The translations under genes and the position numbers were made by a program. Positions 9,817 to 43,842 of a stretch of 64,000 bases of DNA are shown piece after piece (position 1 is the first letter of the stretch; the number at the start of each line of letters is the position of its first letter). The DNA lies in NCBI GenBank assembly GCA_041301185.1, contig JBFYSV010000182.1, forward strand, positions 1,328-65,327. Direction: 5' to 3'. The notes under the pieces were generated by a model. It was given only the letters and a program-made list of their open reading frames with translations. It did no database searches and was not told the DNA's origin. The DNA comes from Anaerolineae bacterium (GTDB taxonomy: Bacteria; Chloroflexota; Anaerolineae; Anaerolineales; UBA4823).

Positions 9817-9883
9817 TCGGGCGATCGCTCCCAAGCCAATTGAAGGTCTTCTCCGGTATAATCGTAGTCTTGGTGCTATAGGG

Positions 9884-15922: not shown

Positions 15923-16033
15923 CTGGCTCACCCGGCAGTCTCCTTCCTGGGTCCGTCAATCTATTCTCTCTGGCAGCTTTACCATATTGCGTCAATACAC
16001 AAAACGCGCGTATTGCTGCCGGATTCCCTCTTT

Positions 16034-16078
16034 CGTAACGCCAACCGTAACACTTTCGAGACGGGAGGTGAGTATCAT
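16034..16078 (+). promoter_or_regulatory. Second copy of the CGTAACG-N5-CGTAAC(A)-N20-TATCAT promoter architecture
   Basis: CGTAACG at 16034-16040, CGTAACA at 16046-16052, TATCAT at 16073-16078. The spacings are identical to the copies at 5252 and 20692. It lies upstream of paralog 5. Confidence 0.4.
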
Positions 16079-16117
16079 ATACCCATCTATCTTGACATTT
16101 ATGACCCAAGGAGAATA

Positions 16118-26248: not shown

Positions 26249-27676
26249 CTACGATGGTCCAATCATCCCTTTATTTTGAAGGAGCGGTCGCGGGTCAACC
26301 ATGTTTTTGTGGAGTGCAGCCGCTTTGGGAGCCAGCCTAAGGGCCAGCGCCATCAGTTGGGTAAAAAATAGTACCGGCATCGGATCGTCCAGCTTCATCT
26401 GGAACTGGCGTGCGTCCAGGTTGGTGTGGCACAACGGGCAAGCAACCACGATCGCTTCGGCACCGGCTTCCCGGGCATGATGGATCAGGCTGCTGCTCAT
26501 CTTGAGCACGATATCCGGTCGGGTGAGCGAGTGTGCCGCACCGCAACAGACGGTCTTGTAGGACCAGTCGAGCACTTCCAATCCTAAGACCTGCATCAGC
26601 TCGTCCAGGTCGGTAGGATTCTCGGGGTGGCTGGCCTCGGTTACCTCGGGTGGGCGGGTCAGCAGGCAGCCGTAATAGCACACCACCCGCAGCCCCTTAA
26701 GCGGCTGTTTTACCTTCTTGGAGAGCTCCTCTGCTCCAATATGGTTCAAGATCGCCTGGCTGAGCGAGCTCACCTCGACTGTATCCTGATAGGTGTAGCC
26801 GGTTTCCTGGTCTGCCCAGTCTTTGCGCTCGGCTTCGTGGCGGATTTCGTGTAAGGCAGCTTTATGGCGGTTGAAGCAAGCCGCGCAGGGCATCGTAACT
26901 TCCTTGAACCCGCTTTGCTCGATCAGCGCCAGGTTTTGCATCGGCAGGCGCAGGGCTGCCTCAGGATCGGCGCGGTGGGCGGCGCTGCTGCCGCAGCAAA
27001 CCCAACCGTGCGGTTCAACCAGTTTTAATCCGATGGACTGGCAAACCGCCTCCGCTGAGGTGTTGAATTCAGGCGAGGTCGCATGCAGCGAGCAACCCGG
27101 GTAGTATGCCAGGGAGCTTTCTGCTTCAGGCAAGGGTTTTGCCCTGCGAGGCGGATGCGATCGGTGAGGCAGGAAAGGCATCTTGTTCTTTTGCACGTAC
27201 TTTAGACCTAAGTCCAGGTCGCTGAACAGATCTCTGTTGCGCAGCTTCATCTCCACCAGCATACCTAGCTCGTACGACCGGCCCCACAGGCGGATTTCAC
27301 GCAGGAAGGCTTCATTGAAAACTTTGACCTGCGGAATCTGCGGCTTGTAGCCGCGTTGGAGCGCTTCGCGGGTCAGAAACTCCATGATGGCGGTGATGTT
27401 TAGATCTTGGGGGCAACGCGTGGCGCAGGTCTGGCAGGAAGCGCACAGCCAGGGTGTCTGCGTCTGCAGGGCGATATCTTCTTGCCCCAGCTGCAATGCG
27501 CGCATGATCTGGTTGGGCTGCCAATCGAAGAAATCTACCATTGGGCAGCCGCTGGTGCACTTCACACACTGGTAGCACAGGTAGACGTTCTCCCCTAATT
27601 CATCTCTCACCCGTTCAGCCAGGCCTGAGCTGATCTTGTAGTTTTTGCTGGTGGCTTGTTCGCTTTCGCTCATCAT
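26249..27676 (-). CDS. Heterodisulfide-reductase HdrC/HdrB-like fusion (2x[4Fe-4S] ferredoxin domain + two CCG domains)
   Basis: It contains CYQCVKCTSGCP and CASCQTCATRCP (HdrC-like), then CCG-domain motifs (YYPGC...VCCG; YYGC...CCGA...CPLC). The start is ATG 27676 or 27673, overlapping the metF stop (ATGATGA). The ORF-track start 27769 would overlap metF by 97 nt. Confidence 0.8.
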   Translation of the reverse strand: MMSESEQATSKNYKISSGLAERVRDELGENVYLCYQCVKCTSGCPMVDFFDWQPNQIMRALQLGQEDIALQTQTPWLCASCQTCATRCPQDLNITAIMEFLTREALQRGYKPQIPQVKVFNEAFLREIRLWGRSYELGMLVEMKLRNRDLFSDLDLGLKYVQKNKMPFLPHRSHPPRRAKPLPEAESSLAYYPGCSLHATSPEFNTSAEAVCQSIGLKLVEPHGWVCCGSSAAHRADPEAALRLPMQNLALIEQSGFKEVTMPCAACFNRHKAALHEIRHEAERKDWADQETGYTYQDTVEVSSLSQAILNHIGAEELSKKVKQPLKGLRVVCYYGCLLTRPPEVTEASHPENPTDLDELMQVLGLEVLDWSYKTVCCGAAHSLTRPDIVLKMSSSLIHHAREAGAEAIVVACPLCHTNLDARQFQMKLDDPMPVLFFTQLMALALRLAPKAAALHKNMVDPRPLLQNKGMIGPS

Positions 27677-28731
27677 GCCTCCTGCGCGGTTGGGACAGGA
27701 CTGGTCTCTACGACCGGGCGGGGATACAATCCTGTGCCCTCTACGATCGGTTTGACCGCTTCCTCCCACTCAATCGCCATAATATGCACCCCGGCAACCC
27801 CTTCGATCTTGCGGAGCTTTTGTATCAGTTGTATGCAAACCTTGATGCCTTCAGCTTGCCAGGCTTCGGAGCGTGCCTTTTTATCTTCTTTGGTCAGCTC
27901 ATCCTTGCTTTTACCCGCCCAGGGCGCCCCAGCCGCTTCCATCTGCTCGATCAGCTCATCTGGCACCAGGATGCCAGGTACGCTCTTCTTCATGTAGCGC
28001 GCCATGCCTGGGCTCTTTAGAGGCCCTACACCCGCCAGGATATACGTCTGCCGGTGCAGACCCAGCTCGAGCACCTTTTCCATGAAGCGGGCGAAAGCTG
28101 GTATATCATAGACCAGCTGGGTCTGGATAAAATTCGCCCCCGCCTTGACCTTTTTCGCCAGGCGATACGGGCGAAAATCCACCGGATCTGCGAAGGGTGC
28201 CGCAGCCGCGCCAATGAAAAAGCGCGGCTCTGGACCTTTGAATGCCTCACCCGATTGGAAGGTGTGCATGTCGCGCATCTCGGTTACCATTTTCACCAGC
28301 TGGATCGAATCCATGTCAAAGACGTTCTTTGCATCGGGGTGGTTGCCGAATGTCTGGTGATCGCCAGTCAGGCACAGCAGGTTGCGCGCTCCAAGGGCGT
28401 AAGCGCCGAGCAGGTCGCTCTGAATCGCCAGCCGGTTGCGGTCACGGCAGGTCATCTGGATGACAGGCTCCAGACCTTCCTGGATGACAAGGGCTCCCGC
28501 GCCGATGCTGGACATGCGCACGATGGCAGTCTGGTTATCGGTGATATTGACCGCGTCCACATAGCCGCGCAGCAGGGTTGCTTTCTTGCGGATTACGTTA
28601 GCGTCGGCGCTCTGAGGCGGTCCCAGTTCGCCCGTCACGGCAAAATGGCCTGCCCGCAAAACGCGCTCCAGGTTTGAGCCGGACAGGTAGCCGTTGGTGC
28701 GATGTTCTTCGGGGATAGCGAGGCTAGTCAT
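27673..28731 (-). CDS. metF: Methylenetetrahydrofolate reductase, MetF (acetogen type, partner of MetV)
   Basis: 352 aa. Recognisable features are FAVTGELGPP, DAVNITDN, MTCRDRN, LCLTGDH and the FIQTQLVYD family pattern. Confidence 0.85.
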   Translation of the reverse strand: MTSLAIPEEHRTNGYLSGSNLERVLRAGHFAVTGELGPPQSADANVIRKKATLLRGYVDAVNITDNQTAIVRMSSIGAGALVIQEGLEPVIQMTCRDRNRLAIQSDLLGAYALGARNLLCLTGDHQTFGNHPDAKNVFDMDSIQLVKMVTEMRDMHTFQSGEAFKGPEPRFFIGAAAAPFADPVDFRPYRLAKKVKAGANFIQTQLVYDIPAFARFMEKVLELGLHRQTYILAGVGPLKSPGMARYMKKSVPGILVPDELIEQMEAAGAPWAGKSKDELTKEDKKARSEAWQAEGIKVCIQLIQKLRKIEGVAGVHIMAIEWEEAVKPIVEGTGLYPRPVVETSPVPTAQEA

Positions 28732-28733
28732 GC

Positions 28734-29417
28734 TTATTCCTCCTCTGGCGCCAGCCTGAGGTCTTTGCGCACAATTTTGCGCGGGCCGCCATCTCGAGAT
28801 GTACGCCAGTTTTTGGGCGGCTGAATTTCGTATAACAAGTGAAGCTTGCCCATGCTGCTCATCCGGTCGTAGATCAGCTGCCAGGCGCAGTCGATCTCGG
28901 GGTTGATCTCGCAGTGACCATCCTCAGATCCGCCGCATGGACCGTTGAGCAGCGATTTTGAGCAGCGAGCGATCGGGCAGATCCCACCAGTTAACCCCAG
29001 GATGCAATCTCCACAGGCAGCGCAACGCTCAACCCACACGCCTTGTTCTGAGGGCAGCCCCAGGAAGGTGGTATTCAAGCCAGGGACCACCCATGTCTTG
29101 GGGAAGTGCTCTGCGATAGCCTGCACGCCAATCCCGCAGCCCAATGAGAGCACGATGTCCGCCTGCTGCACCTCTTCCGCAATCTGGTCCAGGTACTCCC
29201 ACTCGCATTGGCGCTGAACGGTCACGTCAGTAACCTGCTTTCCATTTCCATCCAGTTTGCTTGCCATGCGCAGGGATGCGGCAACAATCGCGGCTTCGCG
29301 CGATCCACCCGCAAAGCAAACGGTGACGCAGGTGCCGCAGCCAACCACCAGCACCTTGTTGGCGTCACCAATCAGTGTTTTAAGCTCGGCCAGGGGTTTT
29401 TGTTCGGCGGTGATCAT
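28734..29417 (-). CDS. metV: MetV-like subunit (methylene-THF reductase C-terminal/zinc-ribbon-like Fe-S domain protein)
   Basis: 227 aa. It contains VLVVGCGTCVTVCFAGG, then ERCAACGDCILGLTGGICPIARCSKSLLNGPCGGS..GHCE, the Cys pattern of the MTHFR_C domain found next to metF in acetogens. Confidence 0.75.
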   Translation of the reverse strand: MITAEQKPLAELKTLIGDANKVLVVGCGTCVTVCFAGGSREAAIVAASLRMASKLDGNGKQVTDVTVQRQCEWEYLDQIAEEVQQADIVLSLGCGIGVQAIAEHFPKTWVVPGLNTTFLGLPSEQGVWVERCAACGDCILGLTGGICPIARCSKSLLNGPCGGSEDGHCEINPEIDCAWQLIYDRMSSMGKLHLLYEIQPPKNWRTSRDGGPRKIVRKDLRLAPEEE

Positions 29418-29442
29418 GGGTTATACCTCCAGATAATACCGG

Positions 29443-30009
29443 TTAGAATTCATCGGTTTTGGGACGCAGTTTCAGGAATAGCACAGCCACATCGCGTGTA
29501 TCCCCGTCGGTTAACATAAAATAATCTTCATAAGTGGTGATTCTCTCAAATCCCAGTTTTTGAAAGGCTTTGATCACTTTCGACTGGTCGGCAACAACCT
29601 CTGCGACCAAAAGGTGCAGTCCGGAGCGGCGGGCAAGATCGATCAGCTTGTTCAACATGCGGGTGCCCAGGCCGCGCTGGCGGAAGCCTTTAGCCAGGAA
29701 AATCCGCACTTCGCCAATATGGCGTTTGGGTCCACGCCGGAAGTGCAGCGTGGCTTGCCCGACCACCTGATCCTTGACGATGGCAAGTAAGGGCAGCACA
29801 CGGCTATAATCCAGGGTTTTGCACCAGGCTTCGATAACTGCAGGATCGCGCACGTTATCTCGCAAGAAACGAAAGTCCTCATCGCTGACCGGGGAGAATA
29901 ACCCGATTAACCCCTGCAGGTCATCGGATGTCATCGGGCGCAGCAATACGCTGACGCCGTCTTTCAAAGTGACCATATCGCGGTATTTCTTTATTTGTTC
30001 GGGTAACAT
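29443..30009 (-). CDS. GNAT-family N-acetyltransferase
   Basis: 188 aa. The acetyl-CoA binding motif is FRQRGLGTRMLNKLIDLAR (Q/RxxGxG/A). It is embedded between mvhD and metV. Confidence 0.75.
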   Translation of the reverse strand: MLPEQIKKYRDMVTLKDGVSVLLRPMTSDDLQGLIGLFSPVSDEDFRFLRDNVRDPAVIEAWCKTLDYSRVLPLLAIVKDQVVGQATLHFRRGPKRHIGEVRIFLAKGFRQRGLGTRMLNKLIDLARRSGLHLLVAEVVADQSKVIKAFQKLGFERITTYEDYFMLTDGDTRDVAVLFLKLRPKTDEF

Positions 30010-30019
30010 GATGTTTTCG

Positions 30020-30487
30020 CTATGCTTCCTTTCCTTCTCGAGACTCTTGCCTTTTAAGAGGATTGGGACCCAGTTTCGATATGAGGTCGGTTATCTCGCT
30101 GGCGGAGTTGACAAACTCCCCGGCCATCGCAGCGGAAAGATTTACCATCTGGAGGCGCTGACCTTCCAGACCGATTATCTCCAGTAGTTCTTTTGCATAT
30201 TCCACTCGCCTGCGGGCGTTGAGATTACCTTCCAGGTAATGACAGTCGCCCTCCAGTCAACCTGCCACCATCACCCCGTCGGCACCATCCTCAAAGGCAC
30301 GCAGGACATATAATACATCTAATTTCCCGGAGCAGGGCAACTCGATGATCTTGATGGATGGCGGATATTCCAGGCGCATCGAGCCAGCCAGGTCTGCGGC
30401 TGCGTAGGCACAATAGTGACAGCAGAATGCGACGATCTCAGGGCTGAAATTTTCGGGCGAGCTGTTGGGTGGCGTTTCATCCGTCAT
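30020..30487 (-). CDS. mvhD: MvhD-like (methyl-viologen-reducing hydrogenase delta subunit family) protein with an in-frame TGA at a conserved Cys: candidate selenoprotein (155 aa, U77)
   Basis: ORF-track pieces 30257-30487 and 30020-30205 are in the same frame, separated only by TGA at 30259-30257. The read-through gives ...FEDGADGVMVAG-U-LEGDCHYLEGNLNARRRVEYAKELLEIIGLEGQRL... This aligns residue for residue with paralog 35273-35779: ...FEQGADGVYVIA-C-PIGNCHHVRGNERGQARLARAKEILDEIGLGGERL... Confidence 0.65.
30214..30251 (-). promoter_or_regulatory. Candidate bacterial SECIS hairpin downstream of the in-frame UGA
   Basis: The mRNA reads UGA-CUGGA-GGGCG-ACUGUC-AUUACC-UGGAA-GGUAAU-CUCAA-CGCCC. 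It has a lower stem GGGCG/CGCCC, an internal loop, an upper stem AUUACC/GGUAAU and a 5-nt apical loop about 23-27 nt after the UGA. It was folded by eye only. Confidence 0.4.
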
Positions 30488-30495
30488 AGTTATCG

Positions 30496-33400
30496 TTACT
30501 CCGCAACACCAAGGATCAGGCTCTCCACGGGAATGAAACCCGAAGAGCGGGCTTCGATTTCAAACAGCGAATCCAGCTTGTTCAGCATCTGGACATCGGT
30601 ATAGTGCATCAGCTGGATAGCCTGCGCGGGACATTCTGAAACGCAGCTTCCGCATCCGTGGCAAACTGCCGGCTCGATGAAGGCAGCACCCACAATTTTC
30701 CCCACGCCAGTAGCCTCAGAGCTAATCCGGGGTACATTGTAGGGACAGATCCGGACGCAAGTCAGGCAGCCCACGCACTTCTGTGGATCAACCTGCGCCA
30801 CGCGGGCATTGGTCAGCATGGTCTTTTGGGATAATACAGTGGCAGCGCGGGAGGCGGCTGCCAGCGCTTGGGCAATGCTTTCGTCCAAGAATTTTGGATA
30901 GTGAGCCATGCCAGCCATAAAGACGCCATCTGCGGCAAAATCTACCGGGCGCAGTTTCACATGGGCTTCCAGGAAGAAGCTGTCCAGATCGACCGAGAGT
31001 TTGAGCTTGCTGGCAAGCTGGTGCGTACCTTCTGGCGGGATGATGGGCGTACTCAAGACCAGCAGGTCGGGCTGGATGGTGATCTCCCGGGAGAGGACTG
31101 GCTCCCAAACACGTACCGTAATCTCAGAACCGGGCTGCAAGACCGGCCTCTTTGGCGATACCCTGTTGCTCGGGGCGAGTTCCACCTGTGGCTTGCGACT
31201 GAACTCATACTGGATAAACCTTACTCCCGCACGGCGGGCTGCGGTGTAGAGCCTTTCTTTGAAACCATAAGTGCGAATATCACGATAGAGAATGGTGATT
31301 TCCGCCTGGGGGTTAATCTCCTTCAGCTTCAGGGCATTCTTTAGCGCTGTGGTGCAGCACAACCGGCTGCAGAAGTTCTCGGCTGGTCCCACGCATTGAA
31401 TCATGACAACAGATTGCGGGGCATCTACCTCCAATCCAGGGTTGGCGAGTAGTTGCTCGAACTCCAGCTGGGTCAAGATGCGCGGGTCTTGTCCGTAGCA
31501 ATATTCTTGCCCTTTGTACTCCACCCCGCCTGTGGCGATGATGGTCACACCGTGCTGCACTTGGAGAGAACGAACCCCATTGCTGAGCGTGGAGGTGAAG
31601 TTGCCCATGAAGCCGTGGGTCTCAACCAGCTCGCTATCCAGGTGGACGGTGATCAAGGGGTGCTCCACGACTTTGCGGGTGATCTGAGCCAGATATTCTC
31701 GAGGCGAAAGCTCTTGACCACCGTTACTCCCTGGCAGGAAGTACCTCAGGTGACGCAAATTTCCACCTAAGCAGGCCTCTCGTTCAACCATGTGGACTGG
31801 GAATCCCTGGTCAGCCAGCGCCAGGGCGGCGTTCATCCCCGCCGCGCCTCCCCCCACGATGAGCGCGGCGTTATTAACCGCCACCTGACTGATTGCAAGT
31901 GGTTCAAGCCTGGCAGCCTTACCTACGGCCATGCGAACCAGCGCTTTCGCCTTGATTGTGGCTGCTTCCCAGTCGCTCGAATGCACCCAGGAGCACTGGT
32001 TGCGGATATTCGCCATCTCGAACAGGTGCGGGTTGAGACCCGCCTGGCGGATGGCATCCTGGAAAAGCGGCTCATGAGTGACCGGCGTGCAAGACGCTAC
32101 CACCACCCTGTTTAGCTGCAATGCTTTGACTTGCTCGATGATGTGGACAATCGTATCCTGGGAGCAGGTGTACAGGTTGTTTTCGGCGTGCACCACACCG
32201 GGCAGCATCCGAGCATACTCGGCGACGTCGGGCACATCCAGGTACCCGCCGATATTGCTGCCGCAATGGCAGACGAAGACCCCGATGCGCGTTTCCTCAG
32301 CAGAAATATCTCTTTCAGGAGGATACTCCTGGGTCCTTGCCAGGCTATGGCGGGCAGGGGCGAGAATCCGGGCCGCGCTGGCGGCAGCTCCACTGGCTTC
32401 AATCACCGTCTCGGGGATGTCCTTCGGTTCTCGGAACGGACCAGCAACGTAGATGCCCGGGCGGCTGGTCTGCAAGGGATCGAACAGAGTCGTGTGGCAA
32501 AAGCCGTAGTCATCCAGCTCGACTCCCAGGCTGCGCCCAAGCTGTTTTACACGCGGGGAAATTTCCATACCGACCGACAGCACCACCAGGTCGAACTCCG
32601 CCTGCACCGGCTCGCTTGCCCCGGCATACGGGGCGAAGTAGCGCACGACGAGGTTGCCGGTTTGCGGGTCTTCTTTCACATCGCTGAGCCGGCAGCGGGT
32701 GTACTGGATGCCGTATTTCTGCTCCGCCCTGCGGTAGTATTCTTCATAGCCTTTACTGAAAGCACGCGTATCCATGAAGAATACCTGACAGGTTACCTCG
32801 CCGTGACCGTTGCCTGTGTGAGCATGGGCGCGGGCATGCTCAATGGTCATGATCGCTTCTTTGGCCGCGTACATGCAGCACACTGAGGAACAATAATCGT
32901 GGCTTTGGTCCCGGCTGCCAACGCATTGCAAGAAGGCGATCCGTTTTGGGGCAGCACCGTCCGATGGGCGCTGGACCCACCCGCGGGTGGGTCCGCTGGC
33001 GGACAGCATCCGCTCATATTGCAGAGATGTGACCACATTCGGGTAGCGCCCCAGACCATACTCTTCAGAGAGATGGGCGTTATAAACCTCGTAACCAGGC
33101 GCCAGGATGACGGCCCCCACCGGTACCGATTCGGTCTCGCCGATCATGTTGTGATCGATGGCGTTCACTCCGCAGGCAAAAACGCAGCTCATGCATTCCG
33201 AGCAAACTCCGCAAGCCAGGCAGCGGGCAGCCTCTGCCTGGGCGCTGGCATCGTCATAGCCGCCTTCGACTTCGTGGAAATTATCCCGGCGCTGTTCCAC
33301 CGCCAGCTCGGGCATGGGTACCCGTCGCTGTAAATGGATCTCGCCGCGCCCGCGCCGCTCGTCGATCTCGGACTGGGACAGGCGAACCACGGGCAGCTCC

Positions 33401-35232
33401 GGCCGGGGTGGGGGTTCCAGGGGCTCGCCGCGCAGGTAGCGGATCATCGACTGGGCAGCAGTGTGGCCGCGATCGACTGCTTCGATGACGAAAGCCGTAC
33501 CGGAGATACAGTCGCCGGCGGCGAAAACCCCCGGACGAGAGGTCGCCAGCGTATTGGGATTGATGGCGATCGTCTGGCGCTCGGTTAAACCGACATTGGC
33601 ATCCTCCGGGATAAACGCCAGACCGGCGCGCTGCCCAACTGAGAAGATGACGGTATCACAGGGAATGACATGGTTGGTGTTTGGGATCTTCTCTACTTGC
33701 AAGCGGCCGCGCTCATCGAAGCTGAAAGAGGCGACCTGCTGGCATTCGACACCGCCCACATGCCCCCAGGAGTCATCCAGGATGCGCTCAAACGTGCGGT
33801 CTGGATAGATCTTAACCCCTTCAGCTTCCGCAGCATCAACCTCCCAGACGTGGGCGGGCATCGCCGGGCGGCTTTCCAGGCAGGCGAGGTGAACCTCGCA
33901 CCCCAGGCGCACCGCGGTCCGGGCGCAATCGACGGCAACGTTCCCGCCACCCAATACCAGCACGCGCTTGCCCAGGGCGGGTGTAGCACCATTGCTTACA
34001 TCCTGGCTACTTGCGCCCTGAGCCTTAGCAGGTGAGTATTTACTCAGGCGGACGTCGCGCAGAAAGTGGGTGTTGACGATCACACCTTCCAGGTCTGCGC
34101 CGGGGATGGGCAGGCGGATGCCTTCATGGGCGCCAACCGCGATCAGCACGGCATCGAAGCCCTGCTCGAAGACCTCATCCAGATTGTCTATGCGGTGATT
34201 GAGGCGCAGGTCCATCCCCAGGTCGATGATGTCCTGAACCTCGCGCTCGATGATTTCGGTCGGCAGGCGGTACTCAGGCACGCCCAGGCGCAACATGCCG
34301 CCTGGTACAGGCATGGCTTCGAAGACAGTGACGCCGTAGCCTGCCCGGCGGATATCTTGGGCAGCGGTCAGCCCGCACGGGCCAGCGCCAATGATTGCCA
34401 CTCGCTGTTCGGATAAAAGAGGCGTGGTCTCTACCGGCTGGCGAGTCTCGGCGTAGATTTTATCGGTTACAAAGCGCTTTAGCGCCCGGATGTTGATCGG
34501 CTCATCTACCAACCCGCGATTGCAGGCGGTCTCGCAGCGGTGATTGCAGATCCGCCCGCAGATGCCCGGGAAAGGGTTATCCATTTTGATGACCCGCATG
34601 GCATCCTGCCAGCGACCTTCCCGGATCAGAGCAATATAGCCCTGAGCGCGCTGCCCGCTCGGGCAGGCATCCCGGCAGGGAGCGATGCCGCGTTTTTCAA
34701 TGGCATAGGCATTGGGGACTGCCTGCGGGTAAAGCTTATACACTGCCCGTCGTTGTGAAAGCCCTTCATTGAACTTGTCGGGAATGATGACCGGGCAGAC
34801 CTTGGCGCAATCGCCGCAGCCGATACACTTGCTGGTATCGATATAGCGCGGGTTGTGGCGCAGGTTCACGGTGAAGTTACCAGCCTGCCCGCGAATATCG
34901 AGCACCTCCGTATCGGTCATGAGCTGGATATTGGCGTGCTGCCCAACATCCACCAGCTTGGGCGAGATCGTGCACATAGCGCAGTCGTTGGTGGGGAAGG
35001 TTTTGTCCAGCTGAGCCATTTTCCCCCCAATGGCTGACTGCACTTCTACCAGGTAGACTTTAAAGCCCTGGTCCGCCAGGTCCAGGCTGGACTGCATGCC
35101 GGCGATCCCGCCGCCTACCACCATCACAGAGCCGATCACATCTTTGGAGGATGGGGCGCGGTTCTTCGTGGGGTGCAGATCACCTGCACCTCCCGGACCG
35201 GGTATGGCTGTTCCTCCTGGCGAAACGGGCAT
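30496..35232 (-). CDS. hdrA: Giant HdrA-like flavoprotein with an inserted GltD/NfnB-like NAD(P)H-binding module (1578 aa)
   Basis: The N-terminal HdrA FAD fold is VMVVGGGIAGMQSSLDLA with a ferredoxin CIGCGDCAKVCP. An insertion resembles the glutamate synthase small subunit (CRDACP...GICGRICNHRCETACNR, VAIIGAGPCGLTAA, VLVLGGGNVAVDCA, VFAAGDC). HdrA then resumes (LQCVGSRD...YCSSVCCMYAAKEA), with a second FAD fold LIVGGGAAGMNAALALA and C-terminal CVGCLTCVRICP / CHGCGSCVSECP. AGGAGA RBS before ATG 35232. Confidence 0.8.
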   Translation of the reverse strand: MPVSPGGTAIPGPGGAGDLHPTKNRAPSSKDVIGSVMVVGGGIAGMQSSLDLADQGFKVYLVEVQSAIGGKMAQLDKTFPTNDCAMCTISPKLVDVGQHANIQLMTDTEVLDIRGQAGNFTVNLRHNPRYIDTSKCIGCGDCAKVCPVIIPDKFNEGLSQRRAVYKLYPQAVPNAYAIEKRGIAPCRDACPSGQRAQGYIALIREGRWQDAMRVIKMDNPFPGICGRICNHRCETACNRGLVDEPINIRALKRFVTDKIYAETRQPVETTPLLSEQRVAIIGAGPCGLTAAQDIRRAGYGVTVFEAMPVPGGMLRLGVPEYRLPTEIIEREVQDIIDLGMDLRLNHRIDNLDEVFEQGFDAVLIAVGAHEGIRLPIPGADLEGVIVNTHFLRDVRLSKYSPAKAQGASSQDVSNGATPALGKRVLVLGGGNVAVDCARTAVRLGCEVHLACLESRPAMPAHVWEVDAAEAEGVKIYPDRTFERILDDSWGHVGGVECQQVASFSFDERGRLQVEKIPNTNHVIPCDTVIFSVGQRAGLAFIPEDANVGLTERQTIAINPNTLATSRPGVFAAGDCISGTAFVIEAVDRGHTAAQSMIRYLRGEPLEPPPRPELPVVRLSQSEIDERRGRGEIHLQRRVPMPELAVEQRRDNFHEVEGGYDDASAQAEAARCLACGVCSECMSCVFACGVNAIDHNMIGETESVPVGAVILAPGYEVYNAHLSEEYGLGRYPNVVTSLQYERMLSASGPTRGWVQRPSDGAAPKRIAFLQCVGSRDQSHDYCSSVCCMYAAKEAIMTIEHARAHAHTGNGHGEVTCQVFFMDTRAFSKGYEEYYRRAEQKYGIQYTRCRLSDVKEDPQTGNLVVRYFAPYAGASEPVQAEFDLVVLSVGMEISPRVKQLGRSLGVELDDYGFCHTTLFDPLQTSRPGIYVAGPFREPKDIPETVIEASGAAASAARILAPARHSLARTQEYPPERDISAEETRIGVFVCHCGSNIGGYLDVPDVAEYARMLPGVVHAENNLYTCSQDTIVHIIEQVKALQLNRVVVASCTPVTHEPLFQDAIRQAGLNPHLFEMANIRNQCSWVHSSDWEAATIKAKALVRMAVGKAARLEPLAISQVAVNNAALIVGGGAAGMNAALALADQGFPVHMVEREACLGGNLRHLRYFLPGSNGGQELSPREYLAQITRKVVEHPLITVHLDSELVETHGFMGNFTSTLSNGVRSLQVQHGVTIIATGGVEYKGQEYCYGQDPRILTQLEFEQLLANPGLEVDAPQSVVMIQCVGPAENFCSRLCCTTALKNALKLKEINPQAEITILYRDIRTYGFKERLYTAARRAGVRFIQYEFSRKPQVELAPSNRVSPKRPVLQPGSEITVRVWEPVLSREITIQPDLLVLSTPIIPPEGTHQLASKLKLSVDLDSFFLEAHVKLRPVDFAADGVFMAGMAHYPKFLDESIAQALAAASRAATVLSQKTMLTNARVAQVDPQKCVGCLTCVRICPYNVPRISSEATGVGKIVGAAFIEPAVCHGCGSCVSECPAQAIQLMHYTDVQMLNKLDSLFEIEARSSGFIPVESLILGVAE

Positions 35233-35272: not shown

Positions 35273-35779
35273 TTATCCGCCCCTCCGTCCACGAAAAACG
35301 ATCTCTTCATCTTCTTCGGGTGCAACTGGTTTAATTGTTGTATCTTTGCCGTTCAGCATTTTCAAGGGATTGGGACCAAGTTTGCGGATGCGCTCCGTCA
35401 TGGTTTGGGCAGCCATTGCAAAGGCATTCCCCTGGCTGCCAGACATAAAGAACATATCCAGCCGCTCCCCACCCAGCCCTATTTCATCCAGGATTTCTTT
35501 GGCTCTTGCCAGTCGGGCCTGGCCGCGCTCGTTGCCGCGCACGTGATGGCAGTTGCCGATCGGGCAGGCGATGACATACACGCCATCCGCGCCTTGCTCG
35601 AAAGCTTCCAATAGATAGCGGATATCGGTCTTGCCGGTGCAGGGCAGGCGCACAAACTTGACATTTGCCGGGTACTGGATGTGCAGCCCGCCCGCGGTAT
35701 CAGCAGCCATATAACCGCAATAGATGCAGTAAAAAGCGGTGATCTCAGGCTCGAAGGCTTTATCCATTACAGGAGACAT
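35273..35779 (-). CDS. mvhD: MvhD-like protein (Cys form)
   Basis: It contains FYCIYCGYMAADTAG, LPCTGK and ACPIGNCHH. ATG 35779 (GGAG 5 nt upstream) is preferred to the ORF-track start 35803. Confidence 0.8.
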   Translation of the reverse strand: MSPVMDKAFEPEITAFYCIYCGYMAADTAGGLHIQYPANVKFVRLPCTGKTDIRYLLEAFEQGADGVYVIACPIGNCHHVRGNERGQARLARAKEILDEIGLGGERLDMFFMSGSQGNAFAMAAQTMTERIRKLGPNPLKMLNGKDTTIKPVAPEEDEEIVFRGRRGG

Positions 35780-38700
35780 AGCTTCTCCTTCTCCGGCAGC
35801 CAACTACCTAACCCGCCGATATGTTGCAGCATGATCTGCTCATCGGTATAGTTCACCAGTTGGATGGCGTTGGCGGGACACTCGCCTGTGCAGGTTCCGC
35901 AGCCCTGGCATTGGGCAGGGTCAATATAGGCTGCTCCGCCCAGTCTGCCGACCCCGGTTCGACCCTCTTGCTGGATCACCTGGGGAATGCCAAACGGGCA
36001 GGTACGGGTACAGGTCAGGCAGCCGACACATTTCGCCGGATCGACCTCCGCCACCACACCTCCCAGGTAGAGCGAATCTCCCTGCGAGAGCAGCGTGACG
36101 GCGCGAGCCGCGGCTGCCATGGCGTGGCTGATGCTCTCCTCGATGAACTTGGGGTAGTGGGCCATCCCTGCCAGGAAAATCCCCTCGCGCATGAAATCCA
36201 TCGGTCGCAGCTTCATTTGCGCTTCGGTAAAGAATCCCTCGCTGGATAAGGGGACGCGCAGCAGGCGAGCGAGCTCGGCGGTTCCCTGTGCTGGGGAAAT
36301 CGACATGCTCAGCGGAATCAGGTCGGCAGGCAGGTCCAGCCAGCGGTCCAAGGAAAGATCGCGCACTCTGACGGTCGCCTGATCACCTTGGGTGAGGATT
36401 TCGGGTGGTTCATCGGAGGTGTAACGGATAAAGATCACTCCCAGCTGGCGAGCCTGGTTATAGTATTCTTCCCGGAATCCGTAGGTGACGATGTTTTTAT
36501 ACAGGATGCTGACATTGCAGCGTGGATTAAAGAGCTTGAGGCGGATGGCGTTTTTGATGGTGTTGGTGCAGCATACCCGCGAGCAGTAGTCCTTCTCGCC
36601 TTCAGGATGGATGCACTGGATCATCACCACGTTGCGCAAGGCGGCGATCTCGCCTGGGTTGTGGATGATTTTCTCTTCTAGCTCGCGCTGGGTGATCACG
36701 TGGGGGAGAGATAACCAGCGGTGCTCGTGACTCTCTCGCCCGCCAGTGGCGACAATCGTGACCCCGTGTTCGATATGGAAGGTTTCGGTATGACCATCTG
36801 GATAGGTGGTGCGCAAGTCTGCCTGGAAGTTACCGACATGCCCGCTATGGCGGACCAGCTCGGTGCGGATCAGCGATTGGATGCGCGCGTGAGCCCGGGT
36901 TCGGTTGATCAGGTCGCGCCCCAGGCGGCGCGGGTTGTAGCCTTCGGCAACGTAATACATGTTCTGCAAATTGCCGCCCAGCACCTCGGATCGCTCAATC
37001 AGGTGGACGTTGTAACCGCTGTCGGCGATGACCAGGGCAGCGGTCATGCCTGCCAGCCCGCCGCCGATGACCAGCGCAGACGGCAGGCACTGGTGGCGCT
37101 GCTTACGCACTTCCTGGGCAAGGCTGACCCGGCCGATCGCCACGCGCAGCATCTCCTGTGCTTTGCGGTTGGCTAGCTCGGGCTGCCAGTGGTGCGAGCG
37201 GCTGCATTGGGATTGCAGGTTGACTAGCTCGACCAGGTAAGGGTTCAATCCGGCATAGCGGATAGTGCGCTGGAACAGGGAATCATGGGTGCGGTTACTG
37301 CAAGCCGCGATCACAACCCGGTTCAAATCCATCTCGCCGATGCGCTCTTGGATGTGCTCAAGCACCTCTGGGAAGCAGGCAAACTCAACCACTTCCGATA
37401 AGACCACGCCGGGCATGCCGGCAGACTGGCGAGCCAGCTCAGGGATATCGATCACTTCTCCAATTGTCCCACCGCACGAGCAGGTGAAAACTCCCACCCG
37501 CAATGGCTGCCCGCTGACGCTCTTTTCGGGGGGCAGATCGTTAGCCGAGAGGAAAGGCCACTCACGGGTATAGGGGTAGGTGTTCAGGCGATCGTTGAGC
37601 AGGCGCATCACCTCGGCCGCCGCCCCGCTGGCATCCAGAATGGTCTCAGAGATCTCTTTGGGGGATGAGAAAGCGCCACACACAAACACACCGGAATGGG
37701 AAGTCTGCAATGGCGTGAACTTATCCGTCTTGCAGAACCCATATTCATTCAGCTCCAGGTCGAGCAGACGGGTGAAATGGCGCGCCGAGTCAGGCGGCTC
37801 CAGGCCAGTCGCCAGCACAACCATATCGAAGTGCTCCTGGCGCGGGTGCCCATTTGGATCGGCATAGTGCAAGATTAGCTCATGCGTGGTTGGATCTTCG
37901 CTGATCGCCGACACCCGGCAGCGCAAGTAGTGGATGCCATGTTGCTGGCGCGCCCGGTCGAAGTAGGAGCTGTATTCTTTGTTGAAGGCGCGCTCGTCCA
38001 TGATGAAGATACTGCAATTAGCCTTCTCGCCGAGGCGTTGTTTAGCCAGGATGGCTTCTTTGGTGGCATACATGCAGCAGATGGATGAGCAATAGGTGTT
38101 CTGCTGGTCGCGCGAGCCAATGCACTGCAACCAGGCAATGGATTGGGGCGCCTGCTGGTTAGAAGGTCTGCGCACGACCCCTTCGGTCGGACCGGAGCGG
38201 CTTGCCAGGCGCTCGTACTCCATAGCGCTCAAGACATCCGGGTAACGCCCGTAACCCAGCTCGTCAAGGCGGCGCGGGTCGTAGGTCTGGAAGCCTAACG
38301 CCAGGATGATCGCGCCGACTTCGACTGACATCAGGCGCGGCGGTTCATCCAGGTGGATGGCGTGGCTGGGGCACACCTCGACACAGCGCCCGCAATTCTC
38401 ACAGTAGGGGCCTTTATCAATCACATACACATCCGGCGCAGCCCGCGCTGCTACCTTATACGCCGCTTTGCGGGTTGCCATGCCTTGCTGGTAGCTATCC
38501 GGCAGCTCCACCGGGCAGACTTCAGCGCAGTAGCCGCAGTTGATACAGCGCGCCGGATCGACATAGCTTGGCTCCTGGCGCAGCGATACGGTGAAATCAC
38601 CCGCTTGCCCGGCGACATCCATCACGTGGGTGTTGGTCAGGATCTCGATATTGGGATGCTGGTTCTGCTGGATATAAGCCGGGGAAATAGACGGCCGGGT

Positions 38701-38964
38701 GCAGCCGTAGCCGTGATCCGGGGTGCCGCGACACAGGACGCAGTCATGTTGGGGAAACATAAAGCCGAGCTGCGCCACCCGGCCTCCCAGGCAGGGGGTG
38801 TGCTCGACCAGGTAGACTTTCAACCCAGAATCGGCTAGGTCCAGGGCGGCGCGCATCCCGCCAATGCCACCGCCAACGACCAGGGCTGCTGCAGATTTTG
38901 GTTGAAGACCGGTTATGCTGATTGGCTGCATACTCGTTTTCCCAGGTAAATGAATCAAGCGCAA
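35767..38964 (-). CDS. hdrA: HdrA-like heterodisulfide reductase subunit A flavoprotein (~1050-1070 aa)
   Basis: It contains LVVGGGIGGMRAALDLA, CINCGYCAEVCP, CENCGRCVEVCP, LQCIGSRD..YCSSICCMYATKEA, a second FAD fold LVIGGGLAGMTAALVIA, and C-terminal CVGCLTCTRTCP / CQGCGTCTGECP. The start is ambiguous: TTG 38982 (track), TTG 38964 (GGGAGGG 5 nt upstream, used here) or ATG 38931. Confidence 0.8.
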   Translation of the reverse strand: MRLIHLPGKTSMQPISITGLQPKSAAALVVGGGIGGMRAALDLADSGLKVYLVEHTPCLGGRVAQLGFMFPQHDCVLCRGTPDHGYGCTRPSISPAYIQQNQHPNIEILTNTHVMDVAGQAGDFTVSLRQEPSYVDPARCINCGYCAEVCPVELPDSYQQGMATRKAAYKVAARAAPDVYVIDKGPYCENCGRCVEVCPSHAIHLDEPPRLMSVEVGAIILALGFQTYDPRRLDELGYGRYPDVLSAMEYERLASRSGPTEGVVRRPSNQQAPQSIAWLQCIGSRDQQNTYCSSICCMYATKEAILAKQRLGEKANCSIFIMDERAFNKEYSSYFDRARQQHGIHYLRCRVSAISEDPTTHELILHYADPNGHPRQEHFDMVVLATGLEPPDSARHFTRLLDLELNEYGFCKTDKFTPLQTSHSGVFVCGAFSSPKEISETILDASGAAAEVMRLLNDRLNTYPYTREWPFLSANDLPPEKSVSGQPLRVGVFTCSCGGTIGEVIDIPELARQSAGMPGVVLSEVVEFACFPEVLEHIQERIGEMDLNRVVIAACSNRTHDSLFQRTIRYAGLNPYLVELVNLQSQCSRSHHWQPELANRKAQEMLRVAIGRVSLAQEVRKQRHQCLPSALVIGGGLAGMTAALVIADSGYNVHLIERSEVLGGNLQNMYYVAEGYNPRRLGRDLINRTRAHARIQSLIRTELVRHSGHVGNFQADLRTTYPDGHTETFHIEHGVTIVATGGRESHEHRWLSLPHVITQRELEEKIIHNPGEIAALRNVVMIQCIHPEGEKDYCSRVCCTNTIKNAIRLKLFNPRCNVSILYKNIVTYGFREEYYNQARQLGVIFIRYTSDEPPEILTQGDQATVRVRDLSLDRWLDLPADLIPLSMSISPAQGTAELARLLRVPLSSEGFFTEAQMKLRPMDFMREGIFLAGMAHYPKFIEESISHAMAAAARAVTLLSQGDSLYLGGVVAEVDPAKCVGCLTCTRTCPFGIPQVIQQEGRTGVGRLGGAAYIDPAQCQGCGTCTGECPANAIQLVNYTDEQIMLQHIGGLGSWLPEKEKLCLL

Positions 38965-39098
38965 ACCGCCCTCCCTGCTCAATGCAGAAAGGGCGGCGGC
39001 TGCGATGAAATTGCGAAGAAGCCCCCTCTATTAATCGGGTGGCTTGTTGCTATTCTGACTCGGATGGGTACCGGTCAATCATACGTTGTTATGTGATT

Positions 39099-39206: not shown

Positions 39207-41369
39207 TCAATGACGACCGCGAGACAGTATCGCCTCCGGGCGAGCCAGCTCGCTACCGGCGGCTGGCTCAATCTTCACCGCACAGGCTTTGTATTCGGGA
39301 ATCTTGGCCTGCGGGTCGAGGGCGTCGATGGTCAGCAAGTTGGCGGCGGCTTCGGCAAAATGGAAGGGGATGAAGACTGCCCCCGCCGAGGTTTTGTCAG
39401 TGACGGTGGCGCGCAGCACGATGCTCCCCCGCCGGGAGGAGACCCGCACCGCCTGCCCATTGGTAATTCCAGCCAGGGTCGCGTCGGGTGGGCTGATTTC
39501 GACCCGCGCTTCGGGGTATAGCTCGTCCAGCTTGGAATGGCGGGTCATCGTGCCGCCGTGCCAGTGCTCCAGCACCCGCCCGGTGACCAGGATGAAGGGA
39601 TACTCGTCATCCGGCTGTTCGACCACCGGCACATACTCCAGCGGGTGGAACTTGCCCCTCCCGCTGGGGAAGGTCTCGGCGAACAGGAAAGGCGTGCCGG
39701 GGTGTGCCTCGTCCCAGACCGGCACCTGCAAGCCGACCTTATCAATCCGCTCGTAAGTCACCCCGGCGTAATCCGGGACGACGCTGCCCATCTCCGCCAG
39801 GATCTCCGCCGGGTGGCTGTAATCCCAGTTACCCTTGTTGGGGCGTCCCAGGCGGGCCTCGATGCGCCGCGCAAGGTCGCACAGGATCTGCCAGTCGGGG
39901 CGCGATCCGCCGCGCGGGGCGATCGCCTGGCGGACACGCTGCACGCGCCGGTCGGTGTTGGTGAAAGTGCCGTCTTTCTCCGCCCAGGAGGTGGCCGGCA
40001 AGAAGACATCCGCGAAGGCCCCCGATTCGTTAATGAACAGGTCCTGGGCGACGATGAACTCCAACTGCTGCATGTGGTGGCGGGTCAGGTTCAGGTTGGG
40101 CTCGGACATCATTGGGTTCTCGCCCATGATGTACAGTGAGCGCACGCCGCCCGGGTGGGCATTGGATAGAATCTCGGTGGTGGTCAGGCCGCGCTTTTGA
40201 TTCAGCCCGCCCGGCTCAATGTTCCAGGCGGTCTCCCATTTGGCGGCGTTCTGCGGATCGTCCACCGGCATATAGCCGGGGTAATGGTAGGGCATGCAGC
40301 CCATATCCGAAGTACCCTGAACGTTGTTCTGCCCTCGGAGTGGATTGAGACCGGTGCCCTGCCGCCCGATGTGCCCGGTGAGGAACGCCAGGTGGATCAG
40401 CGAAAGGGCGCTGGCGGTGCCGTGCGAGAGCTGCGAGATGCCCATGCCCCAGTAGATCGCTCCCCGTTCGGCGGTGGCATACATGCGCGCCGCCTGGATG
40501 ATCAGCTCCCGGTCCACGCCGGAGACGCTCTCGGCGTACTCGGGGGTGAATTTCTCCACCGAGCGGGCGAAATCCGCGTAACCCTCAGTACGCTGGTCCA
40601 CGAACTCCTGGTTAACCAACCCTTCTTTGATAATGACGTGCGCCATGGCAGTAAAGACGGGCACGTTGGTGCCTGGCTTGAGCGGCAGCCACAGCTCGGC
40701 GAGGTCGCACAGCTCCATGCGCCGCGGGTCAATGACGATCATCTTGGCGCCGTATTGCTCGACAGCTGCTTTCATCTGCAGGGCGATGATGGGGTGGTTT
40801 TCGGTGGTGTTTGAGCCGGTGACGATGAAGCAATCGTTATGGATCACTTCGGCAGCGGTGTTGCTCATCGCCGACGAAGCGATCGCCTGTTGCAGCGCCA
40901 CCACCGAGCCGGCATGGCATAAGCGGGTGCAGTGATCGACGTTGTTGGTGCGGAACAAAGATCGGTACATTTTCTGCAGCAGGTAGTTGTCTTCGTTGGT
41001 CGCCTTGGCACAGCAGTACACCGCCATCGCCTGGGGACCATCCCGGCGGTAGATCTCCACCAACCGGTCGGTGATACTATCCAGCGCTTCGTCCCAACTG
41101 GCTTCGCGCCATTCGGATAAATCAAATGCCTGGGTGCGCTGCCCTGGGGTTTGGGGTGTTTTGCGGATCAGTGGGGTCGTTACCCTTTTGGGATGGTAAA
41201 TGAAATCGTAACCAAAGCGCCCCTTGACGCACAGGTTGCCCTGGTTGACCACGCTATTGAAGGGCGATGTGACCTTGTAGATATAGTCATCCTTGACGTG
41301 CAGCTCCAGGTTGCAGCCCACGCCGCAATACGGGCAGGTGGTGGGGGTGATCTGGTCGGGAGTGATCAT
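39207..41369 (-). CDS. fdhA: Formate dehydrogenase catalytic (molybdopterin/tungstopterin) subunit, cysteine type
   Basis: 720 aa. The N-terminal [4Fe-4S] motif is [15 protein letters not shown]. The active-site region [14 protein letters not shown] has Cys where Sec-type enzymes carry U. There are molybdopterin oxidoreductase and C-terminal MopB barrel patterns. No Tat signal. Confidence 0.85.
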
Positions 41370-42064
41370 GGTCGCCGCCTCGTCTTTCTGGATGCCTGCA
41401 TCACTTCAGCCGGAGTATGACCTTGTTCGAGCAGCCACTCGCGGCGGGGTTTTAGCGCCCCGCTCGGGCAAACGCCCACGCACTGCCCGCAGAAGACGCA
41501 GGTAGTCTCGGGCATAGATTTGTCGAAGAAAGTACCGATCTGGGTTTCGAAGCCGCGCCCGGTGAAGTTAATCGCAAAGGTGTACTGGGCATCCTCGGCG
41601 CATACCTGCACGCAGCGCCAGCACAGCACGCACTTGGCGTAATCGCGAACGTACATTGGGTTGTCGTCGATGACGGGCGGGTCACGCCGCTCAGCGCCGG
41701 GAAAGCGTTGCGGGTCAGAATTGTACTCGGCGAGCATGGCGAGGATCTCGGGCGAGTCGGAAAGATCGACTGTGGAAGCCAGCATTTCGAAGATCGTTCG
41801 CCGGCTGCGCTCGACGCGCTCGGAACGAGTCCAGACTTTCATACCCTCACTAACTTTTGCGACGCAGGCAGCTGCCAGGACGCGGGCGCCATCGATTTCT
41901 ACCACGCAGGTGCGGCAGACGGCATTGGCGGTGGTGGCTTCGTGATAGCATACGGTGGGGATGTTGATGCCTGCCAGGTGGGCAGCTTGCAGGATGGTCG
42001 TCCCCAGGGGAACGCTGACGGTCTGCCCGTCGATCGAGATCGTAATTTCATTCATACAGGTCAA
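41366..42064 (-). CDS. Fe-S subunit equivalent to the N-terminal domain of NuoG/FdsA ([2Fe-2S] + 2x[4Fe-4S])
   Basis: 232 aa. It contains [22 protein letters not shown]...CYHE...CRTCVVEI (2Fe-2S), then [11 protein letters not shown] and [16 protein letters not shown]. The stop overlaps the fdhA start (ATGA). Confidence 0.8.
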
Positions 42065-42105
42065 ATATCCATAAGAGTGATTGGAGCGAGCACGAGGATG
42101 GGATT

Positions 42106-43842
42106 CTATCCAGTATGAGACTTTGATTCAATAAACAGGTCAGGCCATAGACGCAGCGCGCTCAACACCGCTGTGCCGGCCGTTTGCCCCAGACCACACA
42201 GCGAGGCGTCGCTCATCGTCCAGCCTACGTCTGCCAGGAGCTCGCCGTCGCTGGGCAGGGATTGCCCGGCAGCGATCCGCTCCAGGATCTCATACTGGCG
42301 CTGGGTGCCCATCTGGCAAGGGTAGCACTTTCCGCAGGATTCGTGGGCAAAGAAGTGTGCCAGGCGCTTTAGAACTTCGCGCAGGTCGCGCCGCTTGTCG
42401 AAGACCATGACCACGCCCGAACCCAGCAGCAAACCCGCCTGGCGCAGGTCTTCGAAGGTCAGGCGCACATCGAGCACGTCTGGGGTAGCGAAAGTACCAG
42501 CCGCCCCGCCGAACAAGATGGCTTTCATCTTGCGCCCGCCGGGCACGCCGCCCGCCAGACCCAGCAGCAGGTGGCGCAGGCTGACACCGAACGGCACTTC
42601 ATAAACGCCTGGGTGGACGACATCGCCGGATACGCAGAACAGCTTTGTGCCAGGGGATTTCTCTGTCCCATACTGGCGATATGCCTGTGCACCGTGCTCC
42701 AGAATGTAGGGGATATTGCACAGCGTCTCGACGTTGTTGACAACGGTGGGTTTCAGGAACAAGCCATGGGTGGTGGGGAAGGGCGGCTTGACCCGCGGGA
42801 AGCCGCGCTTGCCCTCGATCGATTCGAACAGAGCAGTTTCTTCTCCGCAGATATAAGCGCCTGCTCCACGGCGCAGCTCAACGTCGAAATTTAACCCGGA
42901 ATCCAGAATGTTCTCTCCCAAATAGCCGGTCAGGCGAGCTTCTTCGATCGCCCAGCTCATTACTTGATAAGCATGTGGATACTCGCCGCGCAGGTAGATA
43001 TAACCCCGGGCTGCCCCGACCGCGTAAGCGGCGATGACCAGCCCCTCCAGCACGCGGTGCGGATCATTCTCCAGCAGCAGGCGATCTTTGAACGTGCCTG
43101 GCTCAGATTCATCCGCATTGCACACCACGTATTTCGGCTGCCCTTCGGCCGCAGCCGCCCCTTCCCATTTGACCCCGGTAGGGAAGGCCGCCCCGCCCCG
43201 CCCCACCAAACCGGCTGTTTTCACCGTTGAGATCACCCCTTCGGGAGAGGTCTCCAGGGCTTTTCTCAAGCCGGCGTAGCCGCCAGCCTGCAGGTATTCA
43301 TCCAGCGAGGTAGGCCGGCCTTTATTGCAGCCAGCGGTTAACAGGTGAATGTCGCCCTGTATGATGCCATAGGGTTGCGTGCCTATGCCTCGAACAATTC
43401 TATCTGCCTGGGCAGGATCCAAACGCCCCAGTGGCACTTCGCCAACCAGAGCTGCCGGAGCGTGCTCGCATAAACCCAGGCAAGGAGCTCTCTCAACGGT
43501 AAAGGCGCCATCGGCGCTGATTGCTCCGGGGGCTGTGCCCAGGTGGCGGCAGATAGCTTGCATCACGGCATCTGAGCCGGCTAAGGCGCAGGCCGGGTCG
43601 CCACATACCTGGATAACCGTCCTACCAACCGGCTCTCGGTAGAACATACTATAAAAATCGATCACGCCGTACACATCCGCAAGCGGAACGCCTAGCATCT
43701 GTCCCACCCGGGAAGCCACAGGCTCGGGCAAATATCCATAATAAGATTGGGCAGCGTGCAAGGCAGGAAGCAGTGCAGTCCGACCTTGGGGTACAAATTC
43801 GGTCAGGATAGCATCCAGCGGAGCGAGGTCGATATCTGACAT
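42106..43842 (-). CDS. NuoE-NuoF fusion-type NAD(P)H-binding flavoprotein subunit (FdsGB/HydB-like)
   Basis: 578 aa. The N-terminal NuoE-like thioredoxin fold has [11 protein letters not shown]. It also has [13 protein letters not shown] (FMN), [16 protein letters not shown] (NAD) and [12 protein letters not shown] ([4Fe-4S]). Confidence 0.85.

Follow-up and report, generated by a model that had tools for sequence, protein, structure and literature searches.

An in-frame TGA codon in an mvhD gene of an Anaerolineae bacterium as a probable selenocysteine codon, followed by an invariant SECIS-like hairpin

The in-frame TGA of an mvhD gene in the DNA of an Anaerolineae bacterium was analysed, and the comparison of sequences indicated that it encodes selenocysteine (Sec) with a probability of about 90%, which would make the gene one for a Sec-containing MvhD. 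The gene occupies positions 30020..30487 on the minus strand of the window, a term used here for the whole stretch of 64,000 nucleotides that was analysed. It consists of 155 codons and a TAG stop, and its product is a [2Fe-2S] electron-transfer subunit of the PF02662/FlpD type. The UGA at 30257..30259 (minus strand) is codon 77; the residue at this place is Cys in Cys-type homologs and the second Sec in VhuD of Methanococcus maripaludis. The original prediction had named the TGA as a candidate selenocysteine codon, and this reading is supported by the state of the codon in relatives, by a hairpin lying after it and by the Sec column of VhuD.

The reading frame on the minus strand extends from the ATG at 30487-30485 to the TAG at 30022-30020 and contains a single interruption, the TGA at 30259-30257. 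Two listed open reading frames fall in the mvhD frame, one of 76 aa (30257..30487) and one of 61 aa (30020..30205), and the earlier observation that the two fragments are split only by the TGA was thus confirmed. Translation through the TGA gave a complete single-domain [2Fe-2S] protein of 155 aa, with the peptide GVMVAG-U-LEGDCHYLEGNLNAR around codon 77. This product matched the Pfam model PF02662 (FlpD/MvhD) over positions 1-123 of 123 (E=1.3e-47, 161 bits against a cut-off of 22.3), which is in accordance with the full-length MvhD homolog that had been expected on read-through. As the match spans the whole model, the 76-aa product would amount to about 60% of one domain; it would be devoid of the last cluster Cys and of 40% of the PF02662 domain. 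The MvhD/VhuD chains in the PDB matched the 155-aa protein with E values from 1e-34 to 1e-41. The score of the protein against the NCBIfam model for VhuD (NF045873) was 164.7 bits, under the curated cut-off of 215, and no mvhA/mvhG or other hydrogenase subunit was found among the scanned genes of the window. By its sequence the protein is assigned to the MvhD/VhuD/FlpD family, and the NF045873 score and the gene content place it outside VhuD proper.

The codon at column 77 was compared among the relatives of the gene. A species-level scan with one genome per species gave 80 loci, of which 79 could be scored at the TGA codon. TGA was present at exactly the codon-77 column in 69 of the 79 species-representative genomes, and 65 of these 69 were labelled Chloroflexota, mostly Anaerolineae/Anaerolineales. 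The metagenome scan showed TGA in 74 of 78 scored contigs. When both scans were pooled with the contigs fetched by protein identity, the totals were 145 TGA-type genes (139 distinct) and 22 Cys-type genes (TGT/TGC), so that the alignment of relatives proposed earlier as a check gave either Cys or TGA at the column. Nearly all TGA-type genes originate from Anaerolineae/Chloroflexota MAGs and metagenomes, and their proteins are 61-90% identical to that of the window mvhD. Sequencing error was rejected as an explanation of the TGA. The closest full-length database proteins (70-80% identity) have Cys at the column, except four that have W; the DNA of one W-annotated relative revealed a genuine TGA which the gene caller had rendered as Trp.

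Conservation beyond the TGA, which had been noticed in the window gene, was found to continue to the end of the protein. In the 78 codons that follow, the encoded residues are conserved whereas synonymous sites change freely, and this combination indicates purifying selection on translation. It also excludes a pseudogene or a real stop, and the chance that the TGA terminates mvhD, leaving a dead gene or a truncated product of 76 aa, is considered negligible. Gene callers do annotate the window allele as fragments of 76/77 aa and 61 aa, and TGA elsewhere in the genome is a stop. Such a stop would, however, have to be shared at one and the same codon by 139 distinct sequences, it would be followed by 78 codons under purifying selection for protein, and the truncated product would be the incomplete domain described above.

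The gene calls of JGI, which give W at the codon in four relatives, would also agree with a genome-wide reassignment of UGA to Trp or Gly (code 4 or 25). The use of TGA in the window contradicts this, as 9 of the 33 Pfam-supported genes, including metF and fdhA, have TGA as their stop, at a length that agrees with their domains, and the genetic code is therefore standard. Besides mvhD, the pairs of window ORFs joined by TGA were only noise and none looked like a gene, and in a tblastn search of 167 loci the conserved genes next to mvhD were free of in-frame TGA. On the nine TGA stops and the uninterrupted neighbours the genome-wide code change was excluded; it is extremely improbable.

The Sec reading of the codon is supported further by the residues that surround it in the protein. 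The family has five invariant Cys columns, at window positions 23, 26, 52, 77 and 82. M. maripaludis VhuD (PDB 9sfi_K) contains two non-standard residues (X), which align with window positions 26 and 77. For archaeal VhuD a distance of 50 codons between its two Sec has been reported; it matches window positions 26 and 77 and thus equates the window TGA with the second Sec site of VhuD. In a structural study of MvhD from M. marburgensis, Cys16 was described as an additional cysteine that is not a ligand, and the alignment with chain 9sw2_D showed that Cys16 is C26 of the window protein. By elimination, column 77 would then be one of the four ligands of the [2Fe-2S] cluster (C23, C52, U77 and C82). 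The TGA had originally been placed at a conserved cluster-ligand Cys; the conserved Cys/Sec column is borne out, while the ligand role is an argument by elimination which depends on Cys16 being a non-ligand.

The same study located His68 and Asp71 of the M. marburgensis protein at the contact with the Cys202/Cys205 pair of HdrA, and these residues correspond to window positions 78 and 81, flanking column 77. By analogy with the methanogen structures, the loop U-L-E-G-D-C with its Sec is suggested to face the flavin of HdrA. The gap across which this loop would face the flavin is 22-25 A in the published work, where the mechanism of electron transfer is still called unknown. A tentative and rather doubtful proposal is that in the Anaerolineae clade the single Sec of the Fdh/Hdr/MetVF set might be a direct selenolate ligand of the [2Fe-2S] cluster facing the HdrA flavin, and that selection might maintain a selenium-ligated cluster and not a catalytic Sec; under the same proposal the hairpin in Cys-type genes might have a second role, for example pausing of translation for cluster insertion.

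The region following the UGA was analysed for a bacterial SECIS element. The full predicted SECIS region of this allele covers 30210..30256 on the minus strand. It contains the upper stem-loop AUUACC-UGGAA-GGUAAU (30224..30240, minus strand), with 6 bp, a loop of 5 nt and G at loop position 2, and this upper hairpin is flanked by the lower stems CUG/CAG and GGGCG/CGCCC. The two-tier hairpin described earlier, made of GGGCG/CGCCC and AUUACC/GGUAAU with the loop UGGAA, was thus recovered. The upper hairpin lies 17-33 nt past the UGA and its loop begins 22 nt past it. The bSECISearch model of Zhang and Gladyshev specifies a loop of 3-9 nt, a stem of 4-16 bp, a minimum free energy of -7.5 kcal/mol or lower, a spacing of 16-37 nt and a G within the first two positions of the loop (N1-G-[G/U]-N-N2). 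The window hairpin agrees with this model on every point, having a 6-bp stem, a 5-nt loop of the form N1-G-G-N-N2, a spacing of 22 nt and an energy of -20 kcal/mol, and the earlier statement that it occupies the position of a bacterial SECIS is consistent with this fit. The predicted fold had an energy of -21.5 kcal/mol over 63 nt and of -20.0 kcal/mol from the UGA to +48; such a stability is usual for RNA of this composition (z = -1.44 versus shuffles). The window contains the pattern TGA-N16-ATTACC-N5-GGTAAT a single time, and none of 100 shuffles contains it.

A constraint on the hairpin was revealed by the synonymous profile, which was calculated codon by codon over codons 16-144 in the set of 139 distinct TGA-type genes. 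Zero synonymous entropy was obtained in one run only, codons 83-88, which encode His-Tyr-Leu-Glu-Gly-Asn. The 18 nt of these codons, CAT TAC CTG GAA GGT AAT, begin 16 nt past the TGA, and the exceptions among them were one GAG for Glu and a few replacements by Asp, Leu or Gln in the loop. All other degenerate codons showed 0.24-2.4 bits, including the Gly, Asp and Cys codons lying just upstream. Across the 139 distinct TGA-type sequences, 17-18 nt of the hairpin core are identical.

Two further analyses of the hairpin gave negative results. The suggested comparison with SECIS models of the Infernal type matched no SECIS family of Rfam, either at the gathering score over the whole window or at E<=10 over positions 29900-30600; in view of the known diversity of SECIS elements in bacteria, the missing match weighs little. 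The sole Rfam match was to a plant-virus element and was judged to be due to chance. RNAalifold and the counting of pairs in 69 aligned elements detected no compensatory base-pair changes in the upper or the lower stem, and on covariation measures the two-tier structure was no better than shuffles. The upper stem shows no covariation because it never varies, and its structure is consequently deduced from invariance of the sequence and not from covariation. The lower stem GGGCG/CGCCC holds in the LEGD...NAR variants; in the LPGD...QAR variants it is retained in part, mostly with a paired GGC/GCC core. It is not claimed as a conserved element, the covariation of the two-tier structure being no better than that of shuffles. 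Taken together, the position of the hairpin, its fit to the model and the constraint on its sequence at the RNA level support its identification as a SECIS element, and binding of SelB to it is predicted.

The fate of the hairpin in genes having Cys at column 77 was also compared. In distant Cys types, namely those of Desantisbacteria, Methanomassiliicoccales, Thermoplasmatota and some Chloroflexota paralogs, the region of the hairpin has other codons or residues. At least five Cys-type lineages near the TGA types (L002, L044/L141, L163, L164/165 and L166/167) have the hairpin without any change; the contig of L163 has two mvhD copies, both of the Cys type and both with the hairpin. For some of the Cys types that keep the hairpin, 38-47% of the synonymous codons are different in the closest TGA type sampled. 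This persistence might mean that the invariant 18 nt serve some other role, with or without Sec, such as a pause for cluster insertion, a site for RNA processing or a regulator, or a site acting at the level of DNA. An alternative role of this kind is nevertheless unlikely, given that position, loop and spacing of the hairpin all agree with the SECIS model and that the more distant Cys types have lost it. Cys genes that descend from Sec genes are, moreover, documented to retain remnants of a SECIS, and as only six synonymous sites are involved, survival of the hairpin after a recent conversion is not improbable. The hairpin in the near Cys types therefore plausibly reflects recent conversion of Sec to Cys, and it also allows a role independent of Sec.

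The hairpin and SelB could in principle serve for the insertion of a residue other than Sec. Recoding of the UGA with Cys by a tRNA-Sec-like tRNA-Cys with the anticodon UCA, or read-through by near-cognate Trp, at least under selenium limitation, would give a mature protein that often has Cys or Trp at position 77. The Cys-type genes of the clade are evidently functional, and the context of the codon would favour read-through: the base after the TGA is C in about 93% of the TGA-type genes counted (66 of 71), and CTG accounts for 95% of the Leu codons at +1. A C after a stop codon makes a leaky context. Insertion of Cys at Sec codons in a SelB-dependent manner is mentioned in the literature (Vargas-Rodriguez 2018, as cited elsewhere). 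Against this, the TGA is kept in 145 genes although one point mutation would give TGC or TGT, and this retention despite a one-step route to Cys argues that a residue other than Cys is inserted. Column 77 is, in addition, a proven Sec site in VhuD, and no tRNA-Cys with a UCA anticodon was seen in the window or in the searched loci. Routine insertion of Cys or Trp is thus very unlikely, and insertion of Sec is the preferred reading.

The machinery for Sec was searched in the window and in 170 sequences from related loci, with 1.65 Mb of flanks. Neither the window nor these flanks contained selA/selB/selD genes by motif searches for SelA, SelB and SelD, ARAGORN gave no tRNA-Sec in the window and 60 loci, and Pfam searches of about 40 window ORFs gave no component of the machinery. 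The GNAT protein identical to that of the window was found on short contigs only. [quoted passage not shown] (2017) describes Sec-containing formate dehydrogenases in Anaerolineae single-cell genomes.

The decoding step proposed here follows the established knowledge of Sec decoding in bacteria. SelB loaded with Sec-tRNA(Sec) would bind AUUACC-UGGAA-GGUAAU while the ribosome translates the mvhD mRNA and would deliver Sec at the UGA of codon 77, and translation would proceed to the TAG at 30022-30020. Gene order and homology suggest that the resulting MvhD may dock on the HdrA module of a 1578-aa HdrL, and homology to the methanogen complexes suggests that it may relay electrons between its [2Fe-2S] cluster and the bifurcating FAD. 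The window MvhD would accordingly form part of a methylene-tetrahydrofolate reductase module of the Moorella type, Hdr-MvhD-MetVF, placed beside a formate dehydrogenase/HdrA/MvhD module.

The genes of these putative modules are all encoded on the minus strand. The HdrL-type flavoprotein of 1578 aa (30496..35232), which lies directly upstream of the TGA-type mvhD, has an HdrA-like piece at its N-terminus, together with an NAD(P)H domain resembling GltD/NfnB and a full HdrA module. On the other side of mvhD, a GNAT acetyltransferase gene (29443..30009) is located between it and metV (28734..29417; PF12225), and these are followed by metF for methylene-tetrahydrofolate reductase (27673..28731; PF02219) and by a fused hdrC-hdrB-like gene (26249..27769) with a 4Fe-4S dicluster and two CCG domains. 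The metF, metV, mvhD, hdrA-type and hdrB/hdrC genes thus form one minus-strand cluster at 26249-35232. Further upstream are the Cys-type mvhD paralog (35273..35803), which is 43% identical and lies downstream of an uninterrupted HdrA-type flavoprotein of 1071 aa (35767..38982), the gene for the formate dehydrogenase alpha subunit FdhA (39207..41369) with an ordinary TGA stop, and the genes of NuoE/F-like and 2Fe-2S/4Fe-4S subunits (41366-43842). In the alignment with the paralog the TGA column is occupied by Cys (VMVAG-U-LEGDCHY versus VYVIA-C-PIGNCHH), as had been stated.

The arrangement was compared among the relatives. Of the 43 loci with enough flank, 42 have a homolog of HdrL immediately upstream of the TGA-type mvhD. 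By comparison, metV followed the TGA-type mvhD within 2.5 kb at 33 of 98 loci, for metF the count was 29 of 82, and a GNAT gene at mvhD is rare (5 of 116). The constant neighbour of the TGA-type mvhD is HdrL, and the link to MetVF appears not to be general in the clade. The window FdhA is of the Cys type (HCTRLCHAG) and neither of the two HdrA-type ORFs is interrupted by TGA, both in line with the original prediction. A tblastn search of the 167 loci gave no TGA at a Cys column in the homologs of FdhA, HdrA, HdrL, HdrCB and MetF, and the relatives therefore agree with the view that Sec in the cluster would be limited to MvhD.

The Sec reading has consequences for annotation. In public records mvhD appears as fragments of 76/77 aa and 61 aa or with Trp at the TGA, and as a result the annotation of well over a hundred genomes and contigs of Anaerolineae lacks an essential subunit of Hdr/MetVF or has it in truncated form. 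When the metabolism of the Anaerolineae that are abundant in sediment and sludge is reconstructed, mvhD should be counted as intact and, on the Sec reading, selenium-dependent. The 139 distinct Sec types, along with several Cys revertants that retain an apparent fossil SECIS, provide a comparison set for the recognition of SECIS by SelB; the same set could address why a [2Fe-2S] ligand position stays Sec while those of FdhA and HdrA do not. For specialists the finding of a Sec-MvhD is unsurprising, and its use lies in annotation and comparison. A recent review, in its available part, places Sec hydrogenase subunits including MvhD only in sulfate reducers and methanogens, and the present gene would extend the range of Sec-MvhD to Chloroflexota.

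The window system was compared with the known ones. With the consensus bacterial SECIS the window hairpin shares the stem length, the loop size, the pattern of the loop G, the spacing and the energy threshold; it differs in being unusually invariant and in having no match to an Rfam family. With VhuD of M. maripaludis the window MvhD shares the PF02662 fold, the five Cys/Sec columns and an HdrA-type neighbour gene. VhuD has two Sec, whereas the window protein would have one, with Cys at the first site (C26); the archaeal SECIS lies in the 3'-UTR, whereas the window gene has its hairpin within the reading frame; and VhuD serves a [NiFeSe] hydrogenase-Hdr complex, while the window has no mvhA/mvhG. 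The PF02662 proteins form a classical family of selenoproteins, which occurs in all archaea that use Sec.

Bacterial precedents are also available. Nineteen examples of Sec-containing PF02662 proteins (FrhD/MvhD/VhuD) in bacteria were listed in 2006, including those of Syntrophobacter, Desulfotomaculum, Carboxydothermus and Moorella thermoacetica (FrhD), and Desulfobacterium autotrophicum has four Sec-mvhD genes (mvhD1,2,3,5) beside hdrA/hdrL. The Sec-MvhD of Deltaproteobacteria and Clostridia resemble the window protein in family, in decoding within the ORF and in pairing with HdrA or with HdrL having an NAD(P)H domain, and Moorella thermoacetica has the same type of hdr-mvhD-metVF cluster. 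These bacteria belong to phyla different from that of the window (Chloroflexota, Anaerolineae). In D. autotrophicum and Moorella, HdrA and FdhA contain Sec too, whereas both are of the Cys type in the window cluster.

Within the lineage itself, the marine Anaerolineae DscP3, An-B22 and SM23_63 share hdrABC-mvhD-metVF and the fused hdrCB, according to the accessible text of Sewell et al. (2017). In that text MvhD is given four conserved cysteines, an in-frame TGA is not mentioned, and Sec is described only in formate dehydrogenases. Precedents exist for the Sec column, the mode of decoding and the gene neighbourhood. The new elements are the phylum and the scale, as a large clade of Anaerolineae is involved, together with MvhD as the sole predicted Sec protein of its cluster and the uniform core of the SECIS element.

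The SECIS-type upper stem-loop lying 3' of the in-frame TGA in mvhD (CATTACCTGGAAGGTAAT) was also found in genes that encode cysteine at that column. A single contig of the related locus L163 carries two HdrL-MvhD modules, whose mvhD genes (L163:10001-10474 and L163:16655-17113) have the Cys codons TGC and TGT. The hairpin is intact and unchanged in both copies although both are Cys-type, and the organism may have abandoned selenocysteine (Sec) recently. Two mvhD-like genes less than 20 kb apart were observed in L011 and 30 other related loci, and in some of these, such as L011, each of the two matches has the TGA in frame at this column.

At C82 of the window, the motif's second Cys is replaced by Trp (TGG) in a low-coverage Cys77-type contig (L002:1226-1657) and by Tyr (TAT) in one TGA-type MAG (L020, near 10201). 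These replacements reflect either sequencing errors or loss of a cluster ligand. The TGA-type gene is also present in two contigs labelled Methanosarcinales archaeon and Acidobacteriota (L069 and L018), where the bacterial in-ORF hairpin is identical to that of the Anaerolineae. The presence of the gene under these labels is likely a binning error, gene transfer being a possible alternative.

The Sec codon is handled inconsistently across public gene calls (L001:521-952; L170-L173). JGI rendered it as Trp in four relatives, and the window's own mvhD allele was split into fragments of 76/77 and 61 aa by NCBI, ENA and JGI.

Elsewhere in the window, a 456-aa protein with a protoglobin domain and two Rieske [2Fe-2S] domains is encoded at 11251-12621 (+). 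Four large ORFs neighbouring this gene (593, 416, 456 and 465 aa; 6809-11254 and 16013-17410) gave no Pfam match. The hdrCB ORF as listed, with a GTG start at 27769, shares 97 nt (27673-27769) with the end of metF; its start was probably set too far out, and the overlap is probably not genuine.

In the 1578-aa flavoprotein HdrL (30496-35232, -), the HdrA Cys pair motif DKTFPTNDCAMC occurs only in a short N-terminal HdrA-like piece (residues 77-88), while the complete C-terminal HdrA module has PGSNGGQELSPREY at the position of Cys202/Cys205 of M. marburgensis.
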